From: Candidatus Omnitrophota bacterium | Lineage (GTDB): Bacteria > Omnitrophota > Gorgyraeia > 1-14-0-20-64-10 | DNA: 64,000 bases | Direction: 5' to 3' | Assembly: GCA_023248155.1 (NCBI GenBank) | Contig: JAHFFE010000008.1 | Coordinates: 6,515 to 70,514, forward strand | Shown here: one piece after another, positions 35,397 to 62,621 of the stretch | Numbering within the stretch: the stretch's first letter is position 1 | How the letters are laid out: each line of letters begins with the position of its first letter | Made by a program: the position numbers and the translations under genes | The notes under the pieces: generated by a model | Databases searched by the model: none | The model's input: only the letters and a program-made list of their open reading frames with translations | What the model was told of the DNA's origin: nothing

Positions 35397-35564
35397 AAAG
35401 AATTTTTCCTCAAAAAATTTTCCATCCGGTTTTTCTCGCCAGTTGTTTGCTTTCACGCTATAATAAATAAACAAGAACCTGACCCTCATCTCGTCGGCCA
35501 GGAGTACAATCGGCTGCCGGGGTGGGGGAATTTCTTCCGGCGCTTTTAAAACAGATTGCGATTG

Positions 35565-44315: not shown

Positions 44316-44325
44316 ACGCGCTAAA

Positions 44326-46401
44326 ATGGGCGACATGATCAGAAAAACAATTACGGCGATAGTTGCCGGGTCGATGGCGCTGGTTTCTTCAGCGCCGGCA
44401 TCTCTTTTTATCAATTCTGCTCAGCCAGTTTGTCTGCGTTCCCTCCAGGGCGGTGAATCATTTAGAGTTATTTCGGGTATGGAAGAAAAACTAACTGCTC
44501 AAACAGTTACCGGTGCTTCCGATTCCGGAGCGCTCGATCGGCGTACTGTGCTTAAGGCAGGTGCTCTCAGCATAGGCGCTTCCATTCTAAAGTGGGCTCG
44601 ATTATTGCCCGACGATGCCATTTTTGGACAGGAGGGGAAAGCGGTGCAACCTAAAGGCGCTCTGTCTTTGCTGGCCAAAGAATTGGGTGGTAGAAGCGAT
44701 CTTTCGATCATTGTTTGGGATCCATCCAGCATCGGGGGACTTCCCGGTTTTTTTGATCGGGCAGTTCAGGCCGGCGTGACCCGCGTCTGGGTCAGCGGAT
44801 TCCGGTTCAATCAGATGGACAATGCCCGCCAGAAAGCTTTTTTTAATCAGGCTCGCGTTTCCGGCCTGCGCTCCATCGGGTTCATTGACGGTAATTACGA
44901 TTGGGCTAACAATCCCGCGTTTGTAAAATCACATTACGAAAAACTGATTGTCACACTAACCCAGTTTCACAATGATAAATTATTGGGTCGTCTCAAAATC
45001 GTGTTTGCGGCCGATATTGAGCCTTGGACCGGGCCCAATGGAAAGAATTGGAATGGTGATTTCAAGCCGTCGACCGACTTGGTTTGTAACTGCGTTATTC
45101 CGGAAATCAGCGGATTTGCTCAAAGAACAGGCCGTGTTGATAGAACAAATCTGATTACGCTCGTTATGCCATTCTGGTCTCAGAATGGTACGAAGCTGGA
45201 TAATGACCTCGTGGTTAAAGGAGTTGAAGATCTACCCAATACCACGCTGGCTCTGATGAGTTACCGGAATTCCGCTCTTGAAATCGAAAGTGTTCTTAAT
45301 GACACGCGAAGTCGTTTAAGAACAACACCGGCACGGGATCTCCGCTGGGCGTTCGGAGGAGAGACGCTTCCACCCGGTGAAGTAGGCGGGCAGCACGTCA
45401 CTTTTCACGGAAGATTAAAACGGGTTCCTCTGGAACTGTTGCGTGTGATCCGCCGGCTTTCGGAGAGTGAGCGTAAACAGTTGGATGAGGTTTTTATTCA
45501 TTTTGCAAGTCCTGTTGCCGCCGATAAAGCGATTAAGGAATGGCTGGAGAGTCCTGCTGAGGAACCGGCAAAAGGAAAAGATTTTTCAGTCAGAGGCGGC
45601 CAGGCAAAGATATCCAAAGATGGTTCGCGTCTGGAATTTCAAATGGATCTGGGCGATTTGGCCGATCAATCGTTAGTCGCTGTGGCACTGGTGAGAACCG
45701 ACACCTGGTATCCTCAACCGTATGATAATGCAAGCGCCCAGGTACCGGTGCAGGTGGATAAGGACGGTGTTGGCAATGTGGTCGTGTTTGCGGCCGACCG
45801 GAGCTCGTTTGTCGGAGAACAAACGAAAGGCCGCGCCGTGATCATTCTGACACCCACTGATTTTCAAGCTGTAGTAAAAGACAGACTCAACCCCGCACGG
45901 TTAGAACTCCGCGCTCAGAAAATCATCGTATTCGATAAAGAGGGAAAAGCCTCGGTTGTTAATCGGTTGCCTCGCGGCGGTCTGGAAGAATCGATCCGGC
46001 TTCCGGCGCATGCGACCGATGAACGCGTTATTATTTTGACGCCGGACACCGCTGTCGTCGGCCTGGAACTGCTGCGCGGATTTCGTCCCGAGGCAGGCGA
46101 GAAAATCCCGGTGGCGGTGATTGTGCGCAACGCGGTTCAACATTCCCAATTGCTTGATTTATTGGAGGCCCAGTCGATTCAGCTGCAGTTTCCGGTCGTT
46201 GACCTTTCTGAGACGGGCCAAAATCTTGGGGAGGCCATCGTTGCGCTTCAGGAAGATGCCTGGATTGCCTCTCTCAATCCGTTAGTGATCGACACGATGG
46301 CCGCGTTCCGCCAGCTGGGCACATTCCTCGGTATTCCTGAACTGGACCAGCGCCTGCTGGACAAATGGCTGGACGAACAGGGAGTCGCTTCCGCGGCGTA
46401 A
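44326..46401 (+). CDS. Secreted protein (~691 aa from ATG 44326; alternative start 44479 gives a Tat-type leader). Its C-terminal ~110 aa are nearly identical to the C-terminus of the 46417 gene.
   Basis: The track ORF 44251..46401 overlaps the upstream gene, so an internal ATG is the likely start. ATG 44326 gives MGDMIRKTITAIVAGSMALVSSAPASLF (signal-like). The downstream MEEKLTAQTVTGASDSGALDRRTVLKAGALSIGASIL is a textbook twin-arginine leader if translation starts at 44479. The C-terminal PLVIDTMAAFRQLGTFLGIPELDQRLL is shared with the next gene. Confidence 0.7.
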   Translation: MGDMIRKTITAIVAGSMALVSSAPASLFINSAQPVCLRSLQGGESFRVISGMEEKLTAQTVTGASDSGALDRRTVLKAGALSIGASILKWARLLPDDAIFGQEGKAVQPKGALSLLAKELGGRSDLSIIVWDPSSIGGLPGFFDRAVQAGVTRVWVSGFRFNQMDNARQKAFFNQARVSGLRSIGFIDGNYDWANNPAFVKSHYEKLIVTLTQFHNDKLLGRLKIVFAADIEPWTGPNGKNWNGDFKPSTDLVCNCVIPEISGFAQRTGRVDRTNLITLVMPFWSQNGTKLDNDLVVKGVEDLPNTTLALMSYRNSALEIESVLNDTRSRLRTTPARDLRWAFGGETLPPGEVGGQHVTFHGRLKRVPLELLRVIRRLSESERKQLDEVFIHFASPVAADKAIKEWLESPAEEPAKGKDFSVRGGQAKISKDGSRLEFQMDLGDLADQSLVAVALVRTDTWYPQPYDNASAQVPVQVDKDGVGNVVVFAADRSSFVGEQTKGRAVIILTPTDFQAVVKDRLNPARLELRAQKIIVFDKEGKASVVNRLPRGGLEESIRLPAHATDERVIILTPDTAVVGLELLRGFRPEAGEKIPVAVIVRNAVQHSQLLDLLEAQSIQLQFPVVDLSETGQNLGEAIVALQEDAWIASLNPLVIDTMAAFRQLGTFLGIPELDQRLLDKWLDEQGVASAA

Positions 46402-51615: not shown

Positions 51616-51668
51616 TCGTTTGTTTAAAGTGCGTTTAGTCCTTGTTTTTGAGATAAAATAGTAATGGA

Positions 51669-54122
51669 ATGCCTAACAAACGGTTTTTTATCGGCCTGAT
51701 TATTTTGGGAGCCGCGGCGCTGACGGTGTCGGCTGCTTCGGCCGCGGAGCCTGATTTTTGGTCCCGCTTGAAACAGGCGGTCCGTTCGACCGTTTCCCCT
51801 CAAAAAACCGAACAGAAAAAGCCCGAAACAGTTGTCCCGGCGCCGCCCGCTCCGATTGTAAAAAAACCGGCGGTCCGCGAACCGCCTCCCAAAATGCTCG
51901 TTGACGATTTTGAAATCGGCGAAACGCACGGCATTTTCAAGGAACGCAAGAACCGCATCGACGCGTTCCAGGGCACCTGGGCCAAGCCGCCTTCCTACGC
52001 GCTGATCACGAAAGTTCCCGATACGCGGCCCGGCTATTCCGGCAACTCACTGCGCATTGAATTCAACAAGCAGGGCGGCTGGTGCGGCTGGTACACGCTG
52101 CTCAACGGCATCGATGTTTCCGGCTGCAACGCGCTGACGTTCTGGGTCAAGGGCGAGCATGGCGGCGAACGGTTCGACATCGGTCTTTCCGACGACCGGA
52201 TGCAGGAGATGGAGGTCGATTCCATTTATCTGGGCGCCGTAAATACCTATCTGCCCGACGGCGTGACGACCGAATGGCAAAAAGTACGCGTGCCGCTGGA
52301 GGCGATCCGCTCCGAAATAAATTTAAAGAAGATGGGCTGTCTGGTTTTCTGGTTCCGCTATGAGAGCCACAGCGCCATTCAGATCGACGATATCGGCTTT
52401 GATAATGATCCCGAGGTTGAACGGATTCAGAAGGAAAATACTCCGCGCGCCGAACCCGATCCGCGCGCGCCGCGTGCTCTCTGGGTATGGAAGTATGACC
52501 TGGTCAACCAGCCGCAAGTGCGCGCCGACTGGTTCCCGTTTTTTGAACAGACGGCGATCCGAACGATTTACCTCTACATGGGCGAGGAGCCGGTCAGCCA
52601 CTGGCCTTCTGACCAGCAGAAAAATCTGGCACAGTTTTTGAAAGAGGCCCACGCCCGCAAATTGGAAGTGCACGCACTGCAGGGCAACCCGCTCTGGGCC
52701 TTAAAAACGATGCACCCGAAAGTGATCGCCTGGATCAGCGGGTTCCTCGATTTTAACGCCGCGCACTCGCCGGAAGAACGGATCGACGGCATCCATATGG
52801 ACATTGAGCCGTACCTCACCCAGGAATGGGAAACCGGCGACCGCGACCGCCTGAAAAAAGAGTTTCTGGAACTGCTCGATCTCTGCCGCCAGTTGATTGA
52901 CAAAAAAGCGGTGGCCACCGACCGCCCCTGGGCCGTCGGGCCGATGGCCAAAAAACCGTTTGTGATGGGGCTGGCCATTCCGCTGTTTTATGATCAGGAA
53001 CCGGAAATGGAAGAAAAACTGCTCAGCTACCTCGATTATGCCGCGCTGATGGATTATTACGATTCGTCCCGCGACATCATTGCCGAGGGTTGGCCGCACA
53101 TTAAGCGCGCTCAAAAAGCCGGCGTTCAGATGGTTGTCGGCGTCGAGACGCAGGACCTGGTCCAGATGAACCAGGGCAAGCGCCGCAACACTTTTTTTGA
53201 AGAAGGCTGGGAAGAGATGGAACGCGACATCGCCCGGACGATCGGCGCGTTCGCCGGTAATCCCAGTTTTGCCGGCATCGCGGTCCATTGCGATTACTCC
53301 TACCGCAGCCTCCAGCGCGGCCGCAATGTTCCGACGCACGAACGGTCCGGGAAAATTCCGCGTATTGCCGCCGATCTGGGCAATAAAAAAATTTCCATCG
53401 ATGGAGATCTGTCCGAATGGGCCGACGCGAAATGGATGAAAGTCGACCAGCGCGAGCAGGTGGTTTACGGCGTCGGCGCTTGGGGCTGGGCGCAGGATAT
53501 GTCGTACAAGGCGGCCGTCCGCTGGGAACCGAAAGCGCTGTTTTTGGCGCTGGATGTGACCGACAACCAGGTTGTTCAGGAGAAAGCGGATAAAGATCTT
53601 TGGGAGGGGGACCATTTCGAGCTCTGGCTTGACGCCGATCTTTATGAGGATTACAGCGAAGCCGTTAACTCCGCCGATGATTTCCAGATCGGCATCAGTC
53701 CGGGTAATTTTAAAAATCTGCCGCCCCAGGTCTATGTCTGGGTGCCGTCCGTTTCACCTGAATCGGCCGCGCTCGTGCAGATTGCCGCCAAGCCGAAATC
53801 GCCCGACGCAAAAAACAAATCGGGCGGCTATACCATCGAACTGCGCATCCCGGTTGCGTTCTTATTCCAGAATATCCAGAAGCGCGTCGGTGTCGATCCG
53901 GGTGAGGTGAGCGCGCCGCGCGGCGTTACGCTCGAGTCAATGGTGCTGAATATCGGCTGTTTGGAGGCCGGCGAGTTGAAGCCCGGTTTCAAACTCGGCA
54001 TGATGATTGACGGGTCCGACACCGATAATCCATCCCAGCCGCAGAAATGTCTGCTCTCCACTTCGGTGGAACGGCAGTGGGGAGACCCGACTACGTTTAA
54101 CATTGTGGAGCTGGAAGAATGA
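51669..54122 (+). CDS. Secreted multidomain carbohydrate-active-like protein (817 aa). Signal peptide, ~110-aa beta-sandwich (CBM-like) module, glycoside-hydrolase-like TIM barrel (DGIHxD motif), CBM9-like domain.
   Basis: The N-terminus MPNKRFFIGLIILGAAALTVSAASAAEP is a signal peptide. The module GGWCGWYTLLNG...LTFWVKGEHGGERFDIGLSDD...YLPDGVTTEWQKVRVPLEAI is paralogous to modules in the next three genes. ALWVWKYD...IYLY...LEVHALQGNPLW...DGIHMDIEPY is paralogous to the 56626 gene and resembles GHL/YngK-type TIM barrels. DGDLSEWADAKW...LWEGDHFELWLDAD matches the CBM9-like family pattern. Confidence 0.7.
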   Translation: MPNKRFFIGLIILGAAALTVSAASAAEPDFWSRLKQAVRSTVSPQKTEQKKPETVVPAPPAPIVKKPAVREPPPKMLVDDFEIGETHGIFKERKNRIDAFQGTWAKPPSYALITKVPDTRPGYSGNSLRIEFNKQGGWCGWYTLLNGIDVSGCNALTFWVKGEHGGERFDIGLSDDRMQEMEVDSIYLGAVNTYLPDGVTTEWQKVRVPLEAIRSEINLKKMGCLVFWFRYESHSAIQIDDIGFDNDPEVERIQKENTPRAEPDPRAPRALWVWKYDLVNQPQVRADWFPFFEQTAIRTIYLYMGEEPVSHWPSDQQKNLAQFLKEAHARKLEVHALQGNPLWALKTMHPKVIAWISGFLDFNAAHSPEERIDGIHMDIEPYLTQEWETGDRDRLKKEFLELLDLCRQLIDKKAVATDRPWAVGPMAKKPFVMGLAIPLFYDQEPEMEEKLLSYLDYAALMDYYDSSRDIIAEGWPHIKRAQKAGVQMVVGVETQDLVQMNQGKRRNTFFEEGWEEMERDIARTIGAFAGNPSFAGIAVHCDYSYRSLQRGRNVPTHERSGKIPRIAADLGNKKISIDGDLSEWADAKWMKVDQREQVVYGVGAWGWAQDMSYKAAVRWEPKALFLALDVTDNQVVQEKADKDLWEGDHFELWLDADLYEDYSEAVNSADDFQIGISPGNFKNLPPQVYVWVPSVSPESAALVQIAAKPKSPDAKNKSGGYTIELRIPVAFLFQNIQKRVGVDPGEVSAPRGVTLESMVLNIGCLEAGELKPGFKLGMMIDGSDTDNPSQPQKCLLSTSVERQWGDPTTFNIVELEE

Positions 54123-55315
54123 ACAAGCAGTCATTGCGCAATGACATGTTCTTCGTTCTCGTTTTATGCTTAATGCTGTGCGCCACCCCTGTTTTTGCCG
54201 CCGAGGTCTCCGTTAGAGACGTCCCGGCATTCCCGGAGGGTACCGCCATTCTTCCGATTGAACAACCGCGCATGCAGCGCGGCCGGTTTGGCGCCTATGC
54301 GATGAGTCCCTCAAAAATGGGTATTTTCCCGGACTTCAAAATAGCAAAACGGCCGGGGTCGTCGGTGGAACCGATGTATGTCCGCTTTCGCAAAGAACCG
54401 GGGCCCTCTTTTTGCGGTTCTTACTGGATTATTGCCGGCGATTTGCGCAAATACGCCACGCTGACCTTCTGGATCCGCGGCGAGCGCGGCGGCGAGAATT
54501 TTGAAATCGGCCTCAATGACTTAATCGCCAGCCGCCGCGAAGATGCGATCATGGGAGGCTCCATTTACCGGTATCTTCCGGGCGGCATCACCAAAGAATG
54601 GCAGCAGGTGAAAATTCCGCTCGAAGATTTTTTCGGCGCCGATTTTTCCCGCATACACAGCCTTGTTTTTTCGTTCTCTGATCCGGGGGAGGGAGCGCTC
54701 TGGATCGACGGCTTTGTTTTCCATGAAGAAGCGCTGGTCCAGCGGGAGGACGAAATCATCCGATCGGGCGAACTGCTGCTGGACAACTTCGACCACAGTG
54801 ATTTGAACCTGCTGGGCCGCAAAACCAACGCTTACAAAAAAACACCGTCGTTTTGCGCGGCCAGCCGTGTTGAGAAACCGCGCCGTGGAAACCAGGGCCG
54901 CTCGTTGCGCCTCGATTATGATAAGCAGTCGACCGGGTGGGCCGGTTATTTTTCGCTGTTTAACCAGATTGACGGCGCTTATTACGATTTAAGCCAATTT
55001 AAGGAGATCCGTTTCTGGGTCCGCGGCGCGCGCGGTAAGGAGGTTTTTGATGTCGGCATGGCCGACCGTTCCTGGTTGACTATTGGTGATTCGGTCAAAT
55101 GTGGTACAATAGATAAATACTTAAAAAAAGGCGTCACAAAAGATTGGCAGGAAGTAGTAATTCCGTTTAAAGATTTTGGCAAATTAGATTGGTCACAAAT
55201 GGGTTCTTTTGTGGTAAATTTCTCTAGGCCGGCAAAAGGAACCCTTTTTGTGGATGATGTCCGGGTGATTCGGAAATCGGACGAAGAACTGCTGAAGGAG
55301 TGGGATAAACAATGA
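54119..55315 (+). CDS. Secreted protein with two tandem beta-sandwich (CBM-like) modules (398 aa).
   Basis: There is an ATGA overlap with the upstream stop. The signal peptide is MNKQSLRNDMFFVLVLCLMLCATPVFAAEV. There are two copies of the FW(I/V)RG..G.E.F.IG(L/M).D ... YL..G.TK.WQ.V.IP motif (CGSYWIIAG...FWIRGERGGENFEIGLND and WAGYFSLFN...FWVRGARGKEVFDVGMAD). Confidence 0.75.
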   Translation: MNKQSLRNDMFFVLVLCLMLCATPVFAAEVSVRDVPAFPEGTAILPIEQPRMQRGRFGAYAMSPSKMGIFPDFKIAKRPGSSVEPMYVRFRKEPGPSFCGSYWIIAGDLRKYATLTFWIRGERGGENFEIGLNDLIASRREDAIMGGSIYRYLPGGITKEWQQVKIPLEDFFGADFSRIHSLVFSFSDPGEGALWIDGFVFHEEALVQREDEIIRSGELLLDNFDHSDLNLLGRKTNAYKKTPSFCAASRVEKPRRGNQGRSLRLDYDKQSTGWAGYFSLFNQIDGAYYDLSQFKEIRFWVRGARGKEVFDVGMADRSWLTIGDSVKCGTIDKYLKKGVTKDWQEVVIPFKDFGKLDWSQMGSFVVNFSRPAKGTLFVDDVRVIRKSDEELLKEWDKQ

Positions 55316-55923
55316 AAATAAAGCGGGTCCTGGTTTTGGTTCTGGTTCTTTTTTTTCTGTCGGGACCTCTTCGCGCGTCGGCCGACTCCGTTTTGGTGGA
55401 TGATTTCGAGCAGGAAGCGGCTAATAAGGTAGGCGGGCGCACCAACAGCTATGTGATGGCGCCCTCGCGCGTGCTGGCGCTGCGCGTCACCGAGAACGCG
55501 CACGGCGGCAAAAAAGCGCTGGTGCTCAAATACGATAAGAAGGGCACCGGCGGTCCGTACGATTCCGGCGGGTGGTGTGGTTATTACACCATGCTGAAAG
55601 TCGGTTCGCGTTATTACGACGCTTCCGGCGCGAAAGCGATTTCGTTCTGGGTGCGCGGCGACCGGGAAGACGAAAATTTCGTGATTGGCCTTTCCGACAA
55701 ACATTGGGATGAGCTGGGTGATTCGGTCAAATCAGAGCCGGTGGTGCAGTATCTTCCGGCCGGAAAGATCACCAAAGAGTGGCAGAAAGCGACGGTTCCG
55801 CTCAGCGCGTTTATGCTGGAAGCCAAGGAACTGGCCTCGATCGCGATCTGTTTTGAAGGATCGATTTATCCCGGCGGTGAATCGCGGGGAACGGTGTACA
55901 TCGACGACTTGATGTTGGAGTAG
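55312..55923 (+). CDS. Secreted single beta-sandwich (CBM-like) module protein (203 aa).
   Basis: There is an ATGA overlap with the upstream gene. The signal peptide is MKIKRVLVLVLVLFFLSGPLRASA. GGWCGYYTMLKVGSRYYDASGAKAISFWVRGDREDENFVIGLSDKHWDELGDSVKSE...YLPAGKITKEWQKATVPLSAF is a clear paralog of the next gene. Confidence 0.8.
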   Translation: MKIKRVLVLVLVLFFLSGPLRASADSVLVDDFEQEAANKVGGRTNSYVMAPSRVLALRVTENAHGGKKALVLKYDKKGTGGPYDSGGWCGYYTMLKVGSRYYDASGAKAISFWVRGDREDENFVIGLSDKHWDELGDSVKSEPVVQYLPAGKITKEWQKATVPLSAFMLEAKELASIAICFEGSIYPGGESRGTVYIDDLMLE

Positions 55924-55966
55924 GGGTTATGGCATATTTAGAGTGGGTCAAGAGGAGGGAACTAAA

Positions 55967-56629
55967 ATGAAGAAAATGATTTGGGCAGTTTCTCTGCTGG
56001 TGCTGACGATGACCGCTTCCGCGTTCGCCGCTCCGGTGCTGGTGGACGATTTCGATCACGAAGATGGAGCCAAGAACTCGCTGGGCAACCGTGCCAATGT
56101 GTTCATAAAAGCTCCGTCCAAGGCAATGGTCACCGCCCGCAAGGAAACGGTGCAGGGCAAGCCGACGCAGGTGTTGATGCTTAAGTATGACAAGCGCAAC
56201 AGCGGCGGCCCGTTTGATTCGGGTGGGTGGTGCGGTTATTACACGCTGCTGAAGTCGGCCGCCGCGCTGGTGGCTCCGACGCCGCAGAATCCGAACCCGC
56301 CTGCCGGTACCGACAAGTACCTCGATGCCAGCGGGTTCAAGGATCTCAGCTTCTGGGTCCGCGGTGAGAAGGGCGATGAGAATTTCGTCGTCGGTGTTTC
56401 TGACCGGCAGTGGGACAAGCTGGGTGATTCGGTCAAGTCCGAGGAGATCGGCAAATATCTGCCGGCCGGCAAATTGACCAAGGATTGGCAAAAGGCGACC
56501 ATTCCGCTGAGTGAGTTCTTCATCGATCACTCGCAGTTGGCCGCGGTCTCCATCGTGTTTGAAGGAGACCTGTTTCCTGAAACCGGACACCAGGGTACGA
56601 TCTACATCGATAACGTCGAGCTCGAGTGA
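55967..56629 (+). CDS. Secreted single beta-sandwich (CBM-like) module protein (~220 aa).
   Basis: The track ORF starts at GTG 55943; ATG 55967 is preferred because it sits 7 nt after AGGAGGG and gives MKKMIWAVSLLVLTMTASAFAAPV (signal). GGWCGYYTLLKS...LSFWVRGEKGDENFVVGVSDRQWDKLGDSVKSEEIGKYLPAGKLTKDWQKATIPLSEF is ~60% identical to the 55312 protein. Confidence 0.8.
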   Translation: MKKMIWAVSLLVLTMTASAFAAPVLVDDFDHEDGAKNSLGNRANVFIKAPSKAMVTARKETVQGKPTQVLMLKYDKRNSGGPFDSGGWCGYYTLLKSAAALVAPTPQNPNPPAGTDKYLDASGFKDLSFWVRGEKGDENFVVGVSDRQWDKLGDSVKSEEIGKYLPAGKLTKDWQKATIPLSEFFIDHSQLAAVSIVFEGDLFPETGHQGTIYIDNVELE

Positions 56630-57606
56630 ATCGTTCTTTAAGAACGGGGGGTTTCTGGTTTAAGAGAGCCCTGACGGCCGTTGTGCTGTCAGGGCTTTTT
56701 TCTTTGTTTGGCATCGGCGCGGTGGGGCCGTCCTTCGTTGGCGCCGAGGAATCCTCCGAGGCCGATGCTGCCGCGGCGCCGAAAGTCAGCGCGATCTGGG
56801 TCTGGGACGCGCGCATCGTGGTGGTCGACGCGGCGCGCGCGGGTCTGCTGGCGTTTTGCCGAAAGCACAAGGTGAATATGATTTATCTTTCGGCGTACGA
56901 TCTGCGTCCGCCGATGGATGAATCGTACCGCACGTTCAACGTCGACGCGCACCGAAACGGAATTACCGTGCAGGCGCTGGCCGGCGATCCGCGCTGGGGA
57001 AAAACGCAGTATCACCATATTCCGATGCAGTGGATCGAATCGGTGCTTCAGTTTAACCGCCAATCCAACCCGCAGCAGCGCTTCGACGGCATTCACGCCG
57101 ACGTCGAGCCCTACTTGCTCTCAAAGAGTTGGAAAGAACAGCCGGCCGCTCTGCTGGGCGGGTACCTCGACCTGCAGTCCAAAGTGATGGGTCAGGTGCG
57201 CGGGCAGGGCGTTTCCTACGGCGTCGATATTCCGTTCTGGTTTGATGATGACACCAATTACCGCATTGAATGGCAGAGCCAGATCAAAACACCGACTCAG
57301 CATATCCTCGACACCGTCGACTCGATTACCGTGATGGCCTACCGCAATTTCGCGGAAGGCGACGATGGCACGGTTCACCTGGTTGCGCTGGAGCTGGAGT
57401 ACGGCGACAAGGTCGGCAAGAAAGTGATCATCGGCCAGGAAACTCAGCCCGACATGTTCCCGGCCTATATTTCTTTCGGCGGTACCTCTTATAAAAAACT
57501 GGTTGAGGAACTGGCCAAGATTGAAGGGGCTGTCGGCGGACGTTCCAGTTTCGGCGGTTTCGCGATCCACCATTACGACAGTTACCGGAAACTCTGCGGT
57601 GAATGA
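56626..57606 (+). CDS. Secreted glycoside-hydrolase-like TIM-barrel protein (326 aa), paralog of the central domain of the 817-aa protein.
   Basis: There is an ATGA overlap with the upstream gene. The N-terminal hydrophobic signal/anchor is ALTAVVLSGLFSLFGIGAVG. AIWVWDARIVV...MIYLSAYD...ALAGDPRWGKTQYHH...FDGIHADVEPYLL aligns with ALWVWKYDLV...IYLY...ALQGNPLWALKTMH...IDGIHMDIEPYL of the 51669 gene. Confidence 0.7.
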   Translation: MNRSLRTGGFWFKRALTAVVLSGLFSLFGIGAVGPSFVGAEESSEADAAAAPKVSAIWVWDARIVVVDAARAGLLAFCRKHKVNMIYLSAYDLRPPMDESYRTFNVDAHRNGITVQALAGDPRWGKTQYHHIPMQWIESVLQFNRQSNPQQRFDGIHADVEPYLLSKSWKEQPAALLGGYLDLQSKVMGQVRGQGVSYGVDIPFWFDDDTNYRIEWQSQIKTPTQHILDTVDSITVMAYRNFAEGDDGTVHLVALELEYGDKVGKKVIIGQETQPDMFPAYISFGGTSYKKLVEELAKIEGAVGGRSSFGGFAIHHYDSYRKLCGE

Positions 57607-57607
57607 G

Positions 57608-58597
57608 ATGAGCAGACACGCCCAGCCACGGGTCCTGCCGCTCGGGGACACTCTCCGCCGTCCGTGCTCGCTTCGCTGCGCGCGTGGCGGCAGAGGCCTC
57701 TCCCGCCCGCGTCACCCCTGGCTTGGGGCTTCGTTGTTTCTTTTTCTTGGTTTTTTTCTGGCTCTTCCGTTGGCGCACGCTGATGTAGTTTACGATGCTC
57801 AGGGCAACAGCATGACCGGCCTTGTGGTTGAAGAACACCGCGACCGTATTCTATTCAACACCGAGCAGGGAGAAAAAACGGTGTTGCGCACGCAGATCGC
57901 CGATATTTTCTATTCCGAACCGGAACGCAACCAGTTTTACCTCGGCAATCAGGCCATTCAGGACGGCGATTACAATTCGGCGCGTGTTTTTTTTATGAAA
58001 GCGCTGCAAATCAACCCGCAATTTTCCGAAGCCGGCGATGCGCTGCAGCGGCTGAAAGACCTTCAGGAAAAAGGAACGCTGTCGCTGGCCGACGCTAATC
58101 CGGTTCGGCTGCTGGAGACCCTCTGGGGCGTCCAACTGCAGGAGGGCGGCACCGGCGCGGTGGTCTTCGCGGTGGAGTCCGGCTCGTTCGGCGATCGGAT
58201 CGGGTTAAAAGCCGGCGACCGTTTAATCGCTTATTGGGGAGAGTCTCTGCTGTATCTGCCGGCCCAGGAAGTGGCGTCGGCCATGCTGGGGAGCGCCGGA
58301 ACAACACTGAAGCTGACGCTTCAGCGCCGCCTGGTGCTTGATCCGGAGCCGGAGCTTGCGATTCCCTGGCCCGGCATGAAGGTCGACATTACGCGGTTGG
58401 GATGGACGGTGCTTTCGATCGATTCCGTCGGGCCGTCGGTGAAAGCCGGGTTTTTAGCCGGCGACCGGATCGTCAAGGTGGATGGCCAGTCAACGCGGTA
58501 TATGCCGCTTTCCAAAATTAATGGGACTATTCAGTCGGCCAAAATCCGCGGTATGAGCGCTTTTATCGAGCGGGATTTAACGGTGGTACGGGAATAA
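57608..58597 (+). CDS. TPR-containing protein with two PDZ domains, N-terminal signal/anchor (~329 aa).
   Basis: The track ORF 57503.. overlaps the upstream gene, while ATG 57608 immediately follows the upstream TGA. LGASLFLFLGFFLALPLAHA is signal-like. A TPR-like helix pair is present (YLGNQAIQDGDYNSARVFFMKALQINPQFSEAGDALQRLK). There are two PDZ signatures (GLKAGDRLIAYWGE and GFLAGDRIVKVDGQ). Confidence 0.65.
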   Translation: MSRHAQPRVLPLGDTLRRPCSLRCARGGRGLSRPRHPWLGASLFLFLGFFLALPLAHADVVYDAQGNSMTGLVVEEHRDRILFNTEQGEKTVLRTQIADIFYSEPERNQFYLGNQAIQDGDYNSARVFFMKALQINPQFSEAGDALQRLKDLQEKGTLSLADANPVRLLETLWGVQLQEGGTGAVVFAVESGSFGDRIGLKAGDRLIAYWGESLLYLPAQEVASAMLGSAGTTLKLTLQRRLVLDPEPELAIPWPGMKVDITRLGWTVLSIDSVGPSVKAGFLAGDRIVKVDGQSTRYMPLSKINGTIQSAKIRGMSAFIERDLTVVRE

Positions 58598-58613: not shown

Positions 58614-59183
58614 ATGTCCGCCAAATTTAAACGAACGCATTACATCAACGATATCGGGCTTCAATTCCGGTATATGGGCGCTACACTGCTGGTTCTGGTT
58701 TTATTTCTTGCGATCGCGATGGCCGTGGTTTATTTCACCGGCTGGACCGAGCTGGTTCAGCGGCTCTCGGCCATTTATCCGCAGGGGCGCCTGGTCGAAA
58801 TTCTTCAGAAGATCTATCTGCGCCTGTTCGCCGGATTTCTGCTGCTGGTACCGGTGGTGATCATTCTCACGCTCTACCTGTCGCACACGATCGCCGGTCC
58901 GCTGGTGCGGATCAAGCGGTATCTGCGGCTGATGGCCAAGGGTGATTTTGATCTGGCTCCGATCGTGCTTCGTCCCGGAGACGAGTTGAAAGATGTCGCC
59001 GAACTGGTCAACGAAGTGACCGCTAAAATGGGGCCTCGTTCGCAGGAACGAAAGCGGTTGGTGGAATCGCTGAAGGAGACCGCGCAAGCATTGCGCGCCG
59101 ACCTGCAGAAGCTTCCATCGGCGGGGCAGGAGATCCAGCGCAAAATCAATACCCTCAACGATATGCTGAAGATGCTCGAATGA
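58614..59183 (+). CDS. Small membrane protein with two TM helices followed by a HAMP-like linker (189 aa).
   Basis: A GAGGAG RBS lies 9 nt upstream. The two TM helices are LLVLVLFLAIAMAVVYFTGW and FAGFLLLVPVVIILTLYL. Then SHTIAGPLVRIKRYLRLMAKGDFDLAPIVLRPGDELKDVAELVNEV has the HAMP amphipathic pattern. The C-terminus is helical. Confidence 0.6.
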   Translation: MSAKFKRTHYINDIGLQFRYMGATLLVLVLFLAIAMAVVYFTGWTELVQRLSAIYPQGRLVEILQKIYLRLFAGFLLLVPVVIILTLYLSHTIAGPLVRIKRYLRLMAKGDFDLAPIVLRPGDELKDVAELVNEVTAKMGPRSQERKRLVESLKETAQALRADLQKLPSAGQEIQRKINTLNDMLKMLE

Positions 59184-59722
59184 AAAAGAAAATCGCACTG
59201 CTTCTGCTGATGGCGGTTGTCTTTCCGTATTCCGTTGCTGTTGCCGTGCAGTCCCGGGAAGAGGCGAAAGATACCGATTCGGACGGAAAACCCGATGAAT
59301 GGCGCATTTATGATGGGGAAACGCTGGTCCGCATCGAGCGCGACCGCAACCATGACGGCCACCGGGAAGTGGTGGTTTTTATGGAGGGCGGCAAGCCGGT
59401 CCGCTCCGAAGTCGACCGCAACGGAGACGGCAATCCGGACCTGGTCCGGTTTCTTAAGGCCGGCATGCCGGAACGGGAGCAGGCCGACCAGAATTTTGAC
59501 GGAAAACCGGATGCCTGGATCTTCTATAAGGAAGGGATCAAAGACCTATTGATCATGGATAAGAATTTTGACGGCCGGCCGGATGCCTGGTTTTATTACG
59601 GCCAGGCCGGTCTGAAGCTGGTCGCCGGAAAGATCGACGAAAATTTTGACGGAAAAATTGACCGTTCGTTTGGCGCTCTGCCGGCCGACGAATCCCGAAA
59701 GCCCTGGGCAAGCCAGCCATAG
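59180..59722 (+). CDS. Secreted Ca-binding repeat protein (180 aa) with six DxDxDG/TSP3-like repeats.
   Basis: There is an ATGA overlap with the upstream gene. The signal peptide is MKKKIALLLLMAVVFPYSVAVAVQS. The repeats are DTDSDGKPDEW, DRNHDGHREV, DRNGDGNPDL, DQNFDGKPDAW, DKNFDGRPDAW and DENFDGKIDRSF, spaced at ~22 aa. Confidence 0.65.
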   Translation: MKKKIALLLLMAVVFPYSVAVAVQSREEAKDTDSDGKPDEWRIYDGETLVRIERDRNHDGHREVVVFMEGGKPVRSEVDRNGDGNPDLVRFLKAGMPEREQADQNFDGKPDAWIFYKEGIKDLLIMDKNFDGRPDAWFYYGQAGLKLVAGKIDENFDGKIDRSFGALPADESRKPWASQP

Positions 59723-59725
59723 GTA

Positions 59726-59754
59726 TTGACCCTGTTTCCTTGGAGTGATAAAAT
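59726..59754 (+). promoter_or_regulatory. sigma70-type promoter for nagB (TTGACC, 17 nt, TAAAAT).
   Basis: TTGACC lies at 59726-59731. A 17-nt spacer follows, then TAAAAT at 59749-59754. This sits ~58 nt upstream of the nagB ATG, and an AGGAGG RBS is at 59796-59801. Confidence 0.55.
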
Positions 59755-59811
59755 AGCCTTTCTCTCGTAACAACATCTTTGAATTACACATAACAGGAGG
59801 AGTATTTTCCA

Positions 59812-60579
59812 ATGGAAGTTGTAATTAAGTCGTCTGCTGAAGAAATGTCAAAATTATCCGCGGAATTGATCGCCGATGTGGTCCGCCACAAGCCGCGCGC
59901 GATTTTGGGCCTGGCCACCGGTTCGACGCCGCTGGGAACCTACAAGGAACTGATCCGCCTTCACAAAGAAGAAGGACTGGACTTTTCCCGCGTCAGCACC
60001 TTCAACCTCGACGAGTATGTCGGGTTGACGCACGATCATCCGCAGAGCTACCACTACTTCATGTGGGAGAACCTCTTTAAGCATATCAACATCAATCCGA
60101 AGAATGTCCATATTCCGGACGGCACCTCGAAGGATGTTCCGGGCTTCTGCCGCTGGTACGAAGAGCAGATCGTCAAGGCCGGCGGACTCGATGTCCAGTT
60201 GCTCGGCATTGGCAGCAACGGACATATCGCGTTCAACGAGCCCGGCTCGTCCCTCGGATCCCGCACGCGCGTCAAGACGCTCGATGAAGGAACCCGCAAG
60301 GACAACGCCCGGTTCTTCAAGACCATGGAAGAAGTACCCAAATACGCGATCACGATGGGAATCGGCACGATCATGGATTCCCGTCAGTTGATTCTTTTGG
60401 CCACCGGCGCTGGCAAGGCCGACGCGATCGCGAAGACCTGCGAAGGTCCGATCACCGCGTTGGTTCCGGCGACGATTGTTCAGCTCCACCCGAAAGCGAC
60501 TATTGTCGTGGACAAACCGGCTTCGACGAAATTGACCCGGGAATACCCGGCCGAGCCGAGCGTCCTGGTTTTGTCGTAA
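59812..60579 (+). CDS. nagB: Glucosamine-6-phosphate deaminase (255 aa).
   Basis: An AGGAGG RBS is present. The protein carries the hallmark NagB motifs LGLATGSTPLGTYKELI, FNLDEYVGL and LLGIGSNGHIAFNEPGSS, and its length is typical of the family. Confidence 0.9.
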   Translation: MEVVIKSSAEEMSKLSAELIADVVRHKPRAILGLATGSTPLGTYKELIRLHKEEGLDFSRVSTFNLDEYVGLTHDHPQSYHYFMWENLFKHININPKNVHIPDGTSKDVPGFCRWYEEQIVKAGGLDVQLLGIGSNGHIAFNEPGSSLGSRTRVKTLDEGTRKDNARFFKTMEEVPKYAITMGIGTIMDSRQLILLATGAGKADAIAKTCEGPITALVPATIVQLHPKATIVVDKPASTKLTREYPAEPSVLVLS

Positions 60580-60598: not shown

Positions 60599-62548
60599 AT
60601 GGCGGTTCCCAACCACGATTTAATCAAGGCGGTTGAGACGGCCCGATCGGCTTCAGAACTGGTGAAGGGAACGAAGGCCGCGAAAGCGGCCTTCGCCCTT
60701 TTATCGGCGAAGCCGGCGGACCTGAAAAAAGCGGGTTACTCCGCATTGACCGCAGCACAGTTAAAAACGCTCAAGGCACAGGGCAACACGGCCGATGACT
60801 GGAAGAAAGTTTTCGCCGGCGCCAAGTTCGATGCCAAGCGCGTTTCCCGCTGCCATTTTTCCGGCACGGTTTTATTGTCGGCTTCGGCCGGCACCGTCGA
60901 AGTGGAGGGGGTTTCTTTCCCGACCGGTCTTTCGCACACCACACTGGTGGATTGTGTCGTCGGCAAAGACGCGTTTGTCCGCAATGTCCGCTTAATCAAC
61001 CGCACGGTGATCGGCGAAGGCGCCGTGTTGTTTGATCTGGGCACCGTCACCAAGGGCAAATCCGATTCGTTCGGCAATGGTTCCGAGATTTTAATCGCGA
61101 TTGAAACGGGCGGGCGCGAGGTTCCGGTTTTCGCGGAACTGACCGTGGATGACGCCTGGCAGCTCTGCCGCAGCCGCTCCAACAAGGCGCTGGTCGATGG
61201 ATATACGGCCGCCGTCGCTGCGTATGTCAAAACAGTTTCAGCGCCGTGCAATGTGATCTCCGCGAAAGCGAAGGTTCTGCACACGCCGTCCTTAAAAGAT
61301 GTTTTCCTCGGCGAAGCGGCCATTGTGAATGCCGCCCAGCAGGTGGAGAATGTCACCGTTCTGTCCAATTCCGATGAGAAGACCGAGATCTCCCACGGCG
61401 CGATCGTCAAGTCGAGCGTGCTGCAGTGGGGATCTGAAGTTACCAGCGGCGCGCTGGTCGACACTTCTTTTCTGACCGAGCATTCCCATGTGGAGCGGGG
61501 CGGGTTTGTCACGCATTCCATTCTGGGACCGAATACCGGTGTGGCCGAAGGCGAAGTCACCAGCGCGTTGCTGGGGCCCTTTGTCGGATTCCATCACCAG
61601 TCGCTGTTGATCGCCGCGCTCTGGCCGGAAGGCAAGGGCAACGTCGGTTACGGCGCCAATGTCGGTTCCAACCATACGGCGAAAGCCCCCGACCAGGAAA
61701 TTTGGCCGGGCGAGGGAACCTTCTTCGGTCTGGGTGTGAACATCAAGTATCCGTCCGATTTGACGCAATCGCCGTACACGATTATTGCCAGCGGTGTCGC
61801 GATGCTTCCGCAGAAAGTCGAATTTCCATTCTCGTTGATCAACACGTCGGCGGGGCACACCCCCGGGATTTCACCGGCCTACAACGAGATCATGCCGGCC
61901 TGGGTGCTCTCGGACAATGTGTATATGGTCAAGCGCAACGAAGGCAAGTACGCGAAGCGCAACAAGGCGAAGCGTTCGAAGTTCGATTTCGAAGTGTTCC
62001 GCCCCGAGATCATCGATATGATGGTCGACGCGCGCAAGCGGCTTTCCGCGGTCAGCGGCAAGGAAGTTTACACGGCCAAAGATGTGGCAGGCTTGGGCAA
62101 GAACTACATGTCCGAGTACAGCCGCAAGAAGGCAGTGGAGACCTACTCGTTCTACATCCGCTATTACGCGGCTCTGGGCTTCAAGCGCGAAGCGGCCAAG
62201 TTGGTGTCTGAGAAAAAGGCTGAGAAGATCAAGCGGCTTTTGCAGACGCCGTGCGACTGCCTGCGCTGGGAGCATGAGCGCAAGTTGCTGGCTTCCGAGT
62301 TTTCCGGGAAATCCGAAAAAGAGATTCTGCAGTTCTTGCTGGAGGCGCAGGACAAGATTGCCGCCCAGGTGCAGAGCTCCAAAGAGAAGGACGACAACCG
62401 CGGCGCCGAGGTAATCGAGGATTACACGGCCGCCCACAAGCCGGCCAAAGACGACTCGTTCGTCAAGGAGACTTGGACCGTGACCGCGAAGATGAAAGAG
62501 GAGATCAACTCTCTGATGAATCGCGTGGAGCAGGTGGCTGTCAGTTAA
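60599..62548 (+). CDS. Hypothetical protein with left-handed beta-helix/hexapeptide-like repeats and a helical C-terminal region (649 aa).
   Basis: A GGGAAGGGAGA RBS is present. Repeated short beta-strand hexad patterns occur (VEVEGVSFPTGLSHTTLVDCVVGKDAFVRNVRLINRTVIGEGAVLFDLGTV and VLSNSDEKTEISHGAIVKSSVLQWGSEVTSGALVDTSFL...). The architecture resembles DUF4954-type proteins, but I recognise no specific family from sequence alone. Confidence 0.5.
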   Translation: MAVPNHDLIKAVETARSASELVKGTKAAKAAFALLSAKPADLKKAGYSALTAAQLKTLKAQGNTADDWKKVFAGAKFDAKRVSRCHFSGTVLLSASAGTVEVEGVSFPTGLSHTTLVDCVVGKDAFVRNVRLINRTVIGEGAVLFDLGTVTKGKSDSFGNGSEILIAIETGGREVPVFAELTVDDAWQLCRSRSNKALVDGYTAAVAAYVKTVSAPCNVISAKAKVLHTPSLKDVFLGEAAIVNAAQQVENVTVLSNSDEKTEISHGAIVKSSVLQWGSEVTSGALVDTSFLTEHSHVERGGFVTHSILGPNTGVAEGEVTSALLGPFVGFHHQSLLIAALWPEGKGNVGYGANVGSNHTAKAPDQEIWPGEGTFFGLGVNIKYPSDLTQSPYTIIASGVAMLPQKVEFPFSLINTSAGHTPGISPAYNEIMPAWVLSDNVYMVKRNEGKYAKRNKAKRSKFDFEVFRPEIIDMMVDARKRLSAVSGKEVYTAKDVAGLGKNYMSEYSRKKAVETYSFYIRYYAALGFKREAAKLVSEKKAEKIKRLLQTPCDCLRWEHERKLLASEFSGKSEKEILQFLLEAQDKIAAQVQSSKEKDDNRGAEVIEDYTAAHKPAKDDSFVKETWTVTAKMKEEINSLMNRVEQVAVS

Positions 62549-62558
62549 TTCAAATGTC

Positions 62559-62621
62559 ATCCCCGCGAAAGCGGGGATCTCATAGGCGGGGATGGCGAAA
62601 GCTGTCCCCGCCTTTTTCTTT
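62559..62621 (+). terminator. Tandem-hairpin rho-independent terminator after the 649-aa gene.
   Basis: ATCCCCGC-GAAA-GCGGGGAT is a perfect 8-bp stem with a GNRA loop. GGCGGGGA-TGGCGAAAGCTG-TCCCCGCC is a second stem, followed by TTTTTCTTT. The gene's stop is at 62546-62548. Confidence 0.7.

Follow-up and report, generated by a model that had tools for sequence, protein, structure and literature searches.

In Sus-like loci and in cellulosome-type gene sets, several glycan-binding proteins are encoded beside their cognate glycosidases. A gene set with this likeness lies in a stretch of 64,000 nucleotides (nt) from a Candidatus Omnitrophota bacterium (contig JAHFFE010000008.1, positions 6,515 to 70,514; hereafter the window), where five consecutive genes, here called G1 to G5, encode proteins that look exported and are built from carbohydrate-binding modules (CBM) of family 30, one CBM9 domain and two divergent (beta/alpha)8 or TIM barrels, and a sixth gene encodes a protein with PDZ and TPR domains (Table 1). 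Unlike in the known systems, no SusC/SusD, TonB-dependent transporter, dockerin or cohesin was found among the window neighbours that were scanned, nor was SusC/SusD found in the related Omnitrophota loci, and the conserved partner is instead the PDZ/TPR protein. The modules fall in the same beta-sandwich family as the CBM30 of CelJ (Cel9D-Cel44A) and the CBM11 of Lic26A-Cel5E, with which they have in common the motifs G-W-x-x-x, F-x-[IV]-[KR]-G-x-x-G-G-E-x-F-x-I-G and V-T-x-x-W-Q-x-V-K-I-P-L, but most of them form free-standing secreted proteins (G2, G3 and G4) and not appendages of a cellulase.

For the barrels, the described relatives are the glycoside hydrolases (GH) of family 18 (PF00704, clan GH-K), which cleave beta-1,4-GlcNAc linkages by a retaining, substrate-assisted mechanism, and, among the closest folds, Cwp19 and the C-terminal domain of PgaB (GH153; residues 310-672). 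Cwp19, PgaB, GH18 and GH20 have in common an Asp on strand 4 that stabilises an oxazolinium intermediate, and strand 7 of PgaB ends in a Glu (PMC5765458). The barrels of the window resemble GH18 in their (beta/alpha)8 fold, in part of the strand-4 motif (D-x-E), in the M-x-Y-(Y)-D of strand 6 in G1 and in the matches given below, those of fold and the profile matches of G1 orthologs, but they measure about 270 amino acids (aa) without the alpha+beta insertion domain, and those of the G5 type carry Y-R-N on strand 6 and A-x-H-H-Y on strand 8. With PgaB and Cwp19 they have in common the Asp after strand 4; the strand-7 Glu is found in PgaB as well, whereas Cwp19 has Gly at that position, and the deacetylase domain attached to the barrel of PgaB is missing here. 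A PgaC-like glycosyltransferase of family 2 (GT2), a further likeness to the PgaB system, accompanies proteobacterial homologs of the barrel but is not in the window. As for PDB entry 10yv, it has W-x-W-D, G-D-x-x-W, D-V-E-P, D-x-P-W, G-x-E-T and H-Y in common with G5, and differs in being an actinobacterial, single-domain protein.

Omnitrophota are uncultured and ultra-small bacteria, probably host-dependent or predatory, whose giant genes drew attention, while the conserved genes next to them did not. Glycoside hydrolases are reported, in general terms, to flank these giant genes, and a digestion of prey cell walls has been proposed (bioRxiv 10.1101/2023.11.21.568195; 10.64898/2026.06.07.730766). 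The cassette described here, of which no description was found in the literature, is one of the few elements beside giant genes that are conserved across the phylum and have a readable biochemistry. Its domains are of known kinds; the novelty lies in the family status of the barrel, in the constant set of six genes and in its distribution.

Proposed function of the cassette

With reasonable though far from full confidence, we read the cassette as exported and multivalent, a system by which a glycan, most likely a polymer that contains N-acetylhexosamine (HexNAc), is captured and hydrolysed. Five CBM30-family modules and one CBM9 domain would provide multivalent glycan binding, and hydrolysis would be carried out by the two GH18-related barrels, one lying between CBMs in G1 and the other standing alone as G5. 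A HexNAc polymer is proposed because the chemistry would be of the GH18/GH153 type, with the Glu of the motif G-x-H-x-D-x-E-P after strand 4 acting as general acid, the Asp ahead of it positioning or stabilising the 2-acetamido group of the substrate, and the active site being completed by the Glu that closes strand 7 together with a Tyr that follows strand 6. The likeliest substrates would be beta-linked, such as the glycan of peptidoglycan, chitin or an exopolysaccharide resembling poly-N-acetylglucosamine (PNAG). The PDZ/TPR protein probably organises the set, and the amino sugars released could feed the NagB encoded downstream. Domains and folds, conserved residues, synteny and fusions are observed here, while catalysis, the class of substrate, the scaffolding and the tie to NagB are inferred from them. 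A first-pass annotation of the window, made from its letters alone, had already guessed at an amino-sugar activity, and this guess fits the kinship to GH18, the folds of Cwp19, GH18, PgaB and dispersin, the PgaC-like synthase of the proteobacterial loci and the presence of a true and conserved nagB.

The binding modules

A hidden Markov model (HMM) of the module, built on the copies of the window itself and run on the six-frame translation of the 64 kb, finds exactly five copies in four genes: one in G1, two in G2 and one each in G3 and G4 (domain E-values 1e-66 to 1e-78; 4e-66 and 3e-78 for the G2 copies, 7e-77 for G3 and 9e-76 for G4), and none in the giant open reading frames (ORFs) upstream. 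This is the number that the first-pass annotation had counted, and the motifs that it quoted are all present (GGWCGYY, FWVRG..GDENFV.G.SD and YLPAGK.TK.WQKAT.PLS.F, as well as DGIH(A/M)D(V/I)EPY in the barrels), but the repeated unit spans about 165-180 aa and not the ~110 aa proposed. Identity among the five copies is 30-39% over about 170 residues.

The module belongs to the CBM30 family. Pfam CBM30 (PF21582, curated cut-off 27 bits) is matched above the cut-off by G1 (32.8 bits), by two stretches of G2 (69.7 bits) and by G4 (27.9 bits), with G3 falling marginally short (26.7 bits). All 55 orthologs of G1 match it as well. G2 reaches 33.2 bits with Pfam CBM_11, and for the module CBM11 and CIA30 are weaker than CBM30. 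A profile built from all five copies aligns with the sequences of the crystallised CelJ CBM30 of C. thermocellum at an E-value of 8e-13; two strands are common to both (F-x-I-K-G-x-x-G-G-E-x-F and V-T-T-x-W-Q-x-V-K-I-P-L), and in the profile alignment the aromatic residues of G-W-C-G-Y-Y fall on the G-W-W-I-S region of CelJ. The copy of G1, which is the one that was modelled, matches the CBM30 structures 2c24 and 1wmx in Foldseek (E 5e-10 to 2e-8; target-normalised template-modelling score, TMt, 0.58-0.65; 26-30% identity), and CBM11 is likewise among the matches of this N-terminal sandwich. Profile and fold together thus point to a carbohydrate-binding family, as the first-pass annotation had supposed.

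The CBM9-like domain that had been suspected at the C-terminus of G1 is confirmed on both counts, with 46.4 bits for Pfam CBM9_1 (PF06452) over residues 585-816 against a cut-off of 23.4, and a Foldseek match to the CBM9 structure 1i82 (E 1.6e-11, TMt 0.83; TMt 0.78 for 7nwn). The Pfam match recurs in 55 of 55 orthologs of G1, and five Trp residues of this region are invariant (W584, W619, W645, W653 and W804), Trp being the residue of which CBM9 domains use a pair to sandwich the reducing-end sugar. The AlphaFold2 (AF2) model of G1, built from 55 homologs (mean per-residue confidence, pLDDT, 89.7; predicted template-modelling score, pTM, 0.83), separates three domains: a beta-sandwich at residues 76-245, a (beta/alpha)8 barrel at 269-546 and a second beta-sandwich at 565-816. 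Each of the 120 listed orthologs of G3 is a protein of about 200 aa with a single module, and the search for G3 homologs, which returned only such Omnitrophota orthologs, is thus uninformative on other domain partners.

The barrel family

An HMM of the TIM domain finds exactly two copies in the 64 kb, G5 and the barrel of G1 (E 1e-47 for the latter), and none in the giant ORFs. Both are paralogs, as had been annotated: G5 and residues 266-553 of G1 align in BLASTP with an E-value of 8e-23 and 26% identity. The AF2 model of G5 (pLDDT 86) shows eight clean beta/alpha units. For G5 and 26 homologs, Pfam and NCBIfam give no match even at E<=10. Moreover, a search of 1.84 billion proteins returned 4,146 representative clusters of the family at E<=1e-3 (1,130 at E<=1e-30), so that a large enzyme family comes to light that has a clear catalytic signature, no Pfam model and a single, unpublished crystal structure. 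This structure, PDB 10yv ('Putative GH97 from Cellulomonas fimi', 275 aa), is the sole solved homolog and aligns over its full length, with E-values of 2.7e-8 for G5 alone, 1.8e-18 for the G5 family profile and 3.9e-12 for the profile of G1 orthologs.

Two labels were considered for the barrel and rejected. Membership of GH97 was taken to mean a profile match and a three-domain architecture of about 650-700 aa; no Pfam GH97 match was obtained in G1, G5 or the 26 homologs, and the domain is stand-alone and of about 270 aa. The barrels had also been annotated as GHL-type, which is imprecise: no Pfam family of the GHL kind matches, none of 26 members matches GHL10 (PF02638) at E<=10, the resemblance being one of fold (template-modelling score, TM, 0.60), and the domain is instead related to GH18 and homologous to 10yv.

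The kinship to GH18 is seen best in the orthologs of G1, 20 of which (among 55) match Pfam GH18 at E<=0.01. The three top scores (P0207, 35.1 bits; P0214, 34.6; P0222, 31.1) lie above the gathering score of 29.6 bits, and the matches span profile positions ~93-200, that is, strands 3 to 6. Strand 6 of P0207, VDYAAVMAYYD, aligns with VDFANIMTYD of chitinase B, and the corresponding motif reads M-D-Y-Y-D in G1, M-A-Y-Y-D in P0207 and M-A-Y-R-N in G5, against MxYD in GH18. On strand 4, the motif F-D-G-I-H-x-D-x-E-P parallels the F-D-G-x-D-x-D-W-E of GH18; in G5 numbering it reads D154-x-x-H157-x-D159-x-E161, with His at the second position in 121 of 159 sequences. The fold points the same way. 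The top Foldseek match of the G5 model is Cwp19 (5oq2, GHL10; E 2e-8), followed by many GH18 chitinases and endo-beta-N-acetylglucosaminidases (ENGases), SleL, dispersin and the GH153 domain of BpsB/PgaB (6au1, E 9e-7), and the chi-lectins Ym1, Ym2, YKL-39 and SI-CLP as well as GH26 mannanases are also listed. At the level of sequence, profile searches of the PDB gave no match of the barrel to PgaB or Cwp19, nor did Pfam to Cwp19/GHL10.

Conservation over the family was computed on the 150 best representatives with at most 50% mutual identity (counts are given out of 159). Nearly invariant are W58, W60, G120, G155, D159 (156/159), E161 (157/159), P162, P203 and W205, and also Y239, R240, G270, E272, T273, H315 and Y317; D159, E161, E272, Y239 and R240 are invariant within Omnitrophota. 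In the G5 model, D159 and E161 directly follow strand 4 and E272 closes strand 7, which makes these three the candidate catalytic residues. The objection that the first-pass annotation had itself anticipated, a barrel lacking catalytic acids, fails because the candidate acids, the D-x-E after strand 4 and the Glu at the end of strand 7, are kept almost without exception.

Substrate and catalysis

Several observations weigh against the reading of a HexNAc-degrading system. The G1 and G5 of the window give no Pfam GH18 match even at E<=1, nor do any of 26 G5-type members, and a His replaces the second Asp of the GH18 motif DxxDxDxE; since the window proteins miss the profile and carry this His, the barrel is, as judged from its sequence, a remote relative of GH18 at the level of a superfamily and not a member of it. 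The barrel of G1 retains D378, E380, Y463, D465 and E493, and has lost several invariants of the G5 type (D61 to K, D121 to N, D201 to A, with the HHY motif altered). The label of 10yv is 'putative GH97', and no paper on it was found in the literature. On the binding side, to our knowledge, the characterised CBM30, CBM11 and CBM9 domains bind beta-glucans, cellulose or xylan and not chitin or peptidoglycan, CBM30 holding beta-1,4-glucan chains by aromatic residues of its cleft, and from this a glucan substrate can be argued. Finally, the link to nagB is loosened by one clade (L005 and L028; L and P numbers designate our related loci and homologous proteins) in which no nagB lies downstream, the cassette being preceded by RND and Lnt genes and followed by MurJ and UvrC; by the best sigma-70-like site of the region, found at 59726-59754 in the gap before nagB; and by the ability of NagB to run in the biosynthetic direction too.

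As to nagB itself, the window copy scores 323.9 bits with TIGR00502 (cut-off 236.9), which makes it a true equivalog, and in 19 of the 21 loci with enough flank a nagB is found within 8 kb downstream on the same strand, always together with a DUF4954 protein (Pfam E 4.9e-54 for that of the window). The cassette had been placed upstream of nagB; it does lie upstream, and three co-directional genes intervene, encoding the PDZ/TPR protein, a transmembrane (TM) HAMP-like protein and an exported repeat protein. Because of the promoter-like site before nagB and a terminator-like hairpin after the DUF4954 gene, both genes probably form a separate transcript.

The preference of the binding modules, together with the two Glu residues, would also suit a beta-glucan, either cellulose-like or of mixed linkage, cleaved by a 4/7-type glycosidase in which E161 would be the acid/base and E272 the nucleophile. 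Judging from the names of the matches, the relatives of the modules that have been characterised (CBM30 of CelJ, CBM11, CBM9) all bind beta-glucans or xylan, the Glu after strand 4 in D-x-E-P and the Glu at the end of strand 7 reproduce the layout of clan GH-A, GH26 mannanases occur among the fold matches, and the LtaS-like transferase of the proteobacterial operon described below recalls cellulose modification. We find this alternative rather doubtful: the profile-level kinship is to GH18 and not to a family of clan GH-A, the best fold matches all act on HexNAc substrates, the partner GT2 is nearest to PgaC/IcaA, and the synteny with nagB agrees with HexNAc.

The chi-lectins among the fold matches, and the invariants lost by the G1 barrel, would in turn fit a set of non-catalytic lectins or adhesins built on chitinase-like barrels; in a variant of this idea, with Cwp19 as the top fold match, SleL in the same list and MurJ adjoining the cassette in one clade, the proteins would form an autolysin acting on the own peptidoglycan of the cell, like Cwp19 or SleL. 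Chi-lectins typically lose the catalytic Glu, however, whereas D159, E161 and E272 persist in almost every member of this family and in either paralog, and the Pfam scan of the cassette proteins found no peptidoglycan-binding module (LysM, SPOR or PG_binding), all of which makes either version improbable.

Conservation and gene fusions in Omnitrophota

All the close homologs that carry names come from metagenome-assembled genomes of Candidatus Omnitrophota, with some third-party (TPA) assemblies labelled 'uncultured Planctomycetia'. Among 30 distinct Omnitrophota loci (41-63% identity in G5), the order G1-G2-G3-G4-G5-PDZ/TPR is identical in every one whose contig extends far enough, and the PDZ/TPR gene (Pfam PDZ_6, PDZ_2, PDZ and TPR_2) follows G5 in all loci with flank. 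The annotated operon of five genes does correspond to five plus-strand ORFs exactly at 51669-57606, but the functional unit comprises at least six genes, because the start codon of the PDZ/TPR gene lies 2 nt past the stop of G5 and the order is constant.

Parts of the cassette are also found fused. G1-G2 fusions of 1215-1247 aa read CBM30-TIM-CBM9-CBM30-CBM30, in four representatives a TIM barrel comes after two CBM30 modules, and other fusions are CBM4_9-TIM, PDZ-TIM (P0376) and a module-TIM protein in Victivallis. The constant gene order and these recurrent fusions support the idea that the parts act together.

In most loci the cassette continues with the TM-HAMP-like protein (Pfam HAMP 23 bits, below the cut-off; orthologs with 39-69% identity in 22 loci) and then with a D-x-N-x-DG repeat protein, which has a weak NCBIfam match to the Leptospira adhesin Lsa25.6. 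Its six D-x-[DN]-x-D-G-x-x-D units resemble calcium-binding loops. In one Omnitrophota clade, a third TIM paralog with 27-34% identity to G5 replaces the HAMP-like and repeat genes after the PDZ gene (L002 11736-12563; L030, L031, L032 and L034). In another genome, a G1-G2 fusion of 1247 aa occurs alone in a contig of 2.47 Mb (L088 10001-13744), without G3-G5 or the PDZ gene, and a 4642-aa Laminin_G_3/FG-GAP protein lies 3.5 kb from it on the opposite strand.

The C-termini of several of these proteins are fixed at -[LF]E: 113 of 120 G3 orthologs end in this way, G4 ends in -LE or -LEK, G1 in -LEL[KQE] and the HAMP-like protein in -[IVL]LE. An embedded Shine-Dalgarno box was considered as the cause and rejected, the codons being variable (TTG GAG, CTC GAG, CTC GAA) and the end of G3 lying 40 nt from the next start. 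Taken with the conserved partner carrying two PDZ domains and with the PDZ-TIM fusion, these fixed ends suggest that the C-termini may dock into the PDZ domains of the PDZ/TPR protein.

Relatives of the barrel in other bacteria

Members of the barrel family also occur in Xanthomonadales, Steroidobacteraceae, Massilia, Paenibacillus, Acidimicrobiia, Elusimicrobia and Cellulomonas, those of Paenibacillus being tandem double barrels; culturable organisms of interest here are Stenotrophomonas, Rhodanobacter, Massilia, Paenibacillus and Cellulomonas fimi. A conserved operon ends with the homolog in about 20 proteobacterial loci and encodes, in this order, a HEAT-repeat protein, a processive GT2, a TPR protein with a YaiO outer-membrane barrel, a membrane transferase resembling LtaS/OpgB and the TIM protein. 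PgaC/IcaA is the best NCBIfam match of the GT2, at E 3e-37 and short of the equivalog cut-off, and there is a resemblance to NodC and chitin synthase too. The full operon is found in loci of Xanthomonadales and Steroidobacteraceae (L035-L086; for example L073 3751-10945, L064 and L069); in the Massilia loci the YaiO, LtaS-like and TIM genes are present but neither GT2 nor HEAT genes were detected, and L003 holds the same GT2 and YaiO genes in another arrangement.

No description of this YaiO-GT2 operon was found in the literature, and its layout suggests a synthase-dependent exopolysaccharide system that has yet to be characterised, of which the TIM family is a marker in Xanthomonadales and Massilia. 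The barrel holds in it the slot that is taken by PgaB-C, PelA or BcsZ in other synthase-dependent systems. Such a layout supports a glycan-cleaving role for the TIM protein and leans towards a HexNAc polymer, but it also raises a rival for the Omnitrophota cassette, namely that this would trim, release or cross-link the own exopolysaccharide or capsule of the cell, with the barrels as counterparts of PgaB-C, PelA or BcsZ and G2-G4 as matrix lectins. Besides the proteobacterial operon and the second arrangement in L003, the place of PgaB GH153 among the best fold matches, the housekeeping envelope genes that flank the cassette in one clade (Lnt and RND upstream, MurJ downstream) and the possibility that NagB and the GlmU-like DUF4954 protein equally supply precursors all speak for this rival. 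What holds it down to a possibility we think unlikely is that neither a GT2 synthase nor a porin is present within 10 kb of the cassette in any Omnitrophota locus, or in the 64-kb window, and that four separate secreted proteins made of CBMs or rich in them are unusual for a biosynthetic operon.

Putting these elements together with capture and hydrolysis of a HexNAc polymer, a wider scenario can be drawn, which as a whole we hold to be quite speculative and rather unlikely. The barrel would found an unclassified GH family near GH18/GH153, with no fewer than 4,000 clusters at 50% identity. Its proteobacterial members would be the dedicated hydrolase of an undescribed exopolysaccharide pathway (PgaC-like GT2, YaiO porin and LtaS-like transferase), and the Omnitrophota would have recruited it, along with free CBM30 proteins and a scaffold, the PDZ/TPR protein, that docks the -LE C-termini of G1, G3, G4 and the HAMP-like protein, into an extracellular machine conserved throughout the phylum, which would act beside hypervariable giant surface proteins to grip and breach the amino-sugar wall of a host or prey cell.

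The giant genes upstream

Positions 76-51615 of the window are occupied by six consecutive plus-strand ORFs of 7544, 4165, 1458, 1409, 716 and 1732 aa. No Pfam domain was found in the five that were scanned (7544, 1458, 1409, 716 and 1732 aa), NCBIfam gave no match for the 1732- and 716-aa ORFs, and the window contains no tandem DNA repeats. The AT skew is strongly negative (-0.29) at 28001-30000, within the 4165-aa ORF, unlike in the rest of the window.

The first-pass annotation had linked the cassette to this giant system. As adjacency the link recurs without being universal, since a frame of at least 900 aa closes shortly before G1 in about 12 of the 15 loci with enough flank; as a functional link it stays putative, the giants not being homologous between loci and a promoter-like box preceding G1. 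A tblastn search of the giant ORFs against 86 related loci recovered homologs only for the C-terminal ~135 aa of the 1458-aa ORF and for the 716-aa ORF, and for this reason the giants cannot be used as conserved partners. The tail of the 1458-aa ORF (35556-39932) resembles the ends of large ORFs that precede G1 orthologs (L009 4664-5071 and L019 4774-5154; 24-31% identity, E about 1e-7). Homologs of the 716-aa ORF (44251-46401) sit downstream of DUF4954 in other loci (L019 16134-16820 and L021 16212-17135; 31-32% identity, E 1e-29 to 1e-42), from which it appears that the flanks are rearranged around a fixed cassette.

An explanation of this recurrence would be that the cassette is an arm of the giant system, co-expressed with hypervariable giant surface proteins and attacking, or attaching to, the walls of prey or host. 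Apart from the adjacency, the 53 nt between the 1732-aa ORF and G1, with no terminator found between them, are in line with it, as is the published proposal on hydrolases flanking giant genes mentioned above. We give it only a modest chance, because the scanned giants carry no Pfam domains and are not homologous to the large upstream ORFs elsewhere, the genes upstream of the cassette are RND and Lnt in L005 and L028, L034 has no frame of at least 900 aa directly upstream of G1, the G1-G2 fusion stands alone in another genome, and a promoter-like box precedes G1. The link between cassette and giants is one of recurrent adjacency only.

Gene boundaries and promoter-like sites

Table 1. Features of the cassette and its surroundings (positions in the window)
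Feature	Position	Strand	Description
GATAAAATAG, extended -10 candidate	51652..51661	+	8 nt before the G1 start codon
G1	51669..54122	+	817 aa; signal peptide, CBM30-like module, GH18-like (beta/alpha)8 barrel, CBM9 domain
G1 CBM30-like module	51894-52403 (aa 76-245)	+	
G1 divergent GH18-like (beta/alpha)8 barrel	52464-53327 (aa 266-553)	+	
G1 CBM9 domain	53361-54116 (aa 565-816)	+	
G2	54119..55315	+	398 aa; signal peptide and two CBM30-like modules
G2 modules	54257-54742 (aa 47-208); 54764-55282 (aa 216-388)	+	
G3	55312..55923	+	203 aa; signal peptide and one CBM30-like module
G4	55943..56629	+	228 aa (GTG 55943) or 221 aa (ATG 55964); signal peptide and one CBM30-like module
G5	56626..57606	+	326 aa; signal peptide or anchor, then stand-alone (beta/alpha)8 barrel
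PDZ/TPR gene	57608..58597	+	329 aa from ATG 57608; signal peptide, TPR, two PDZ domains
HAMP-like small membrane protein	58614..59183	+	189 aa; HAMP-like segment and coiled coil
Exported repeat protein	59180..59722	+	180 aa; six D-x-[DN]-x-DG repeats
GATAAAATAG, second copy	59747-59756	+	in the best sigma-70-like site, before nagB
nagB, glucosamine-6-phosphate deaminase	59812..60579	+	NCBIfam TIGR00502
DUF4954 protein	60599..62548	+	left-handed beta-helix (GlmU- or NDP-sugar-pyrophosphorylase-like) segment
Terminator-like hairpin, strong	62584-62613		after DUF4954
-LE C-termini	G1 54111-54119; G3 55915-55920; G4 56621-56626; HAMP-like 59175-59180		orthologs in L001-L034

The 10-mer GATAAAATAG occurs exactly twice in the 64 kb, in both cases between genes and upstream of a gene start, and it may be an extended -10 box shared by G1 and nagB. 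At G1 it may mark the start of a transcript proper to the cassette, and the mRNA might then be leaderless or nearly so for G1. The promoter idea stays weak because the box is not generally conserved upstream of the orthologs of G1 or nagB, similar boxes being present at the starts of G1 orthologs in L001, L019 and L021 only.

The proteins had all been annotated as secreted. G1-G4, as well as the PDZ/TPR protein, open with a basic and a hydrophobic stretch followed by an A-x-A-like site, and they look as if they are exported by means of Sec signal peptides; the N-terminus of G5 is either a long signal or an uncleaved anchor, and some of its orthologs have a lipobox (L-S-G-C or L-A-G-C) at the corresponding site.

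Read directly at the junctions, the ATGA overlaps that had been ascribed to the genes are found at G1/G2 and G2/G3, and also where the start of the repeat protein overlaps the stop of the HAMP-like gene, but not at G4/G5, where the overlap is GTGA, nor at G3/G4, which are separated by 19-40 nt. The overlap at G4/G5 is conditional on the GTG start being right. For G4, the ATG at 55964 (221 aa) is more likely the start than the GTG at 55943, because a GGAGG box precedes it.

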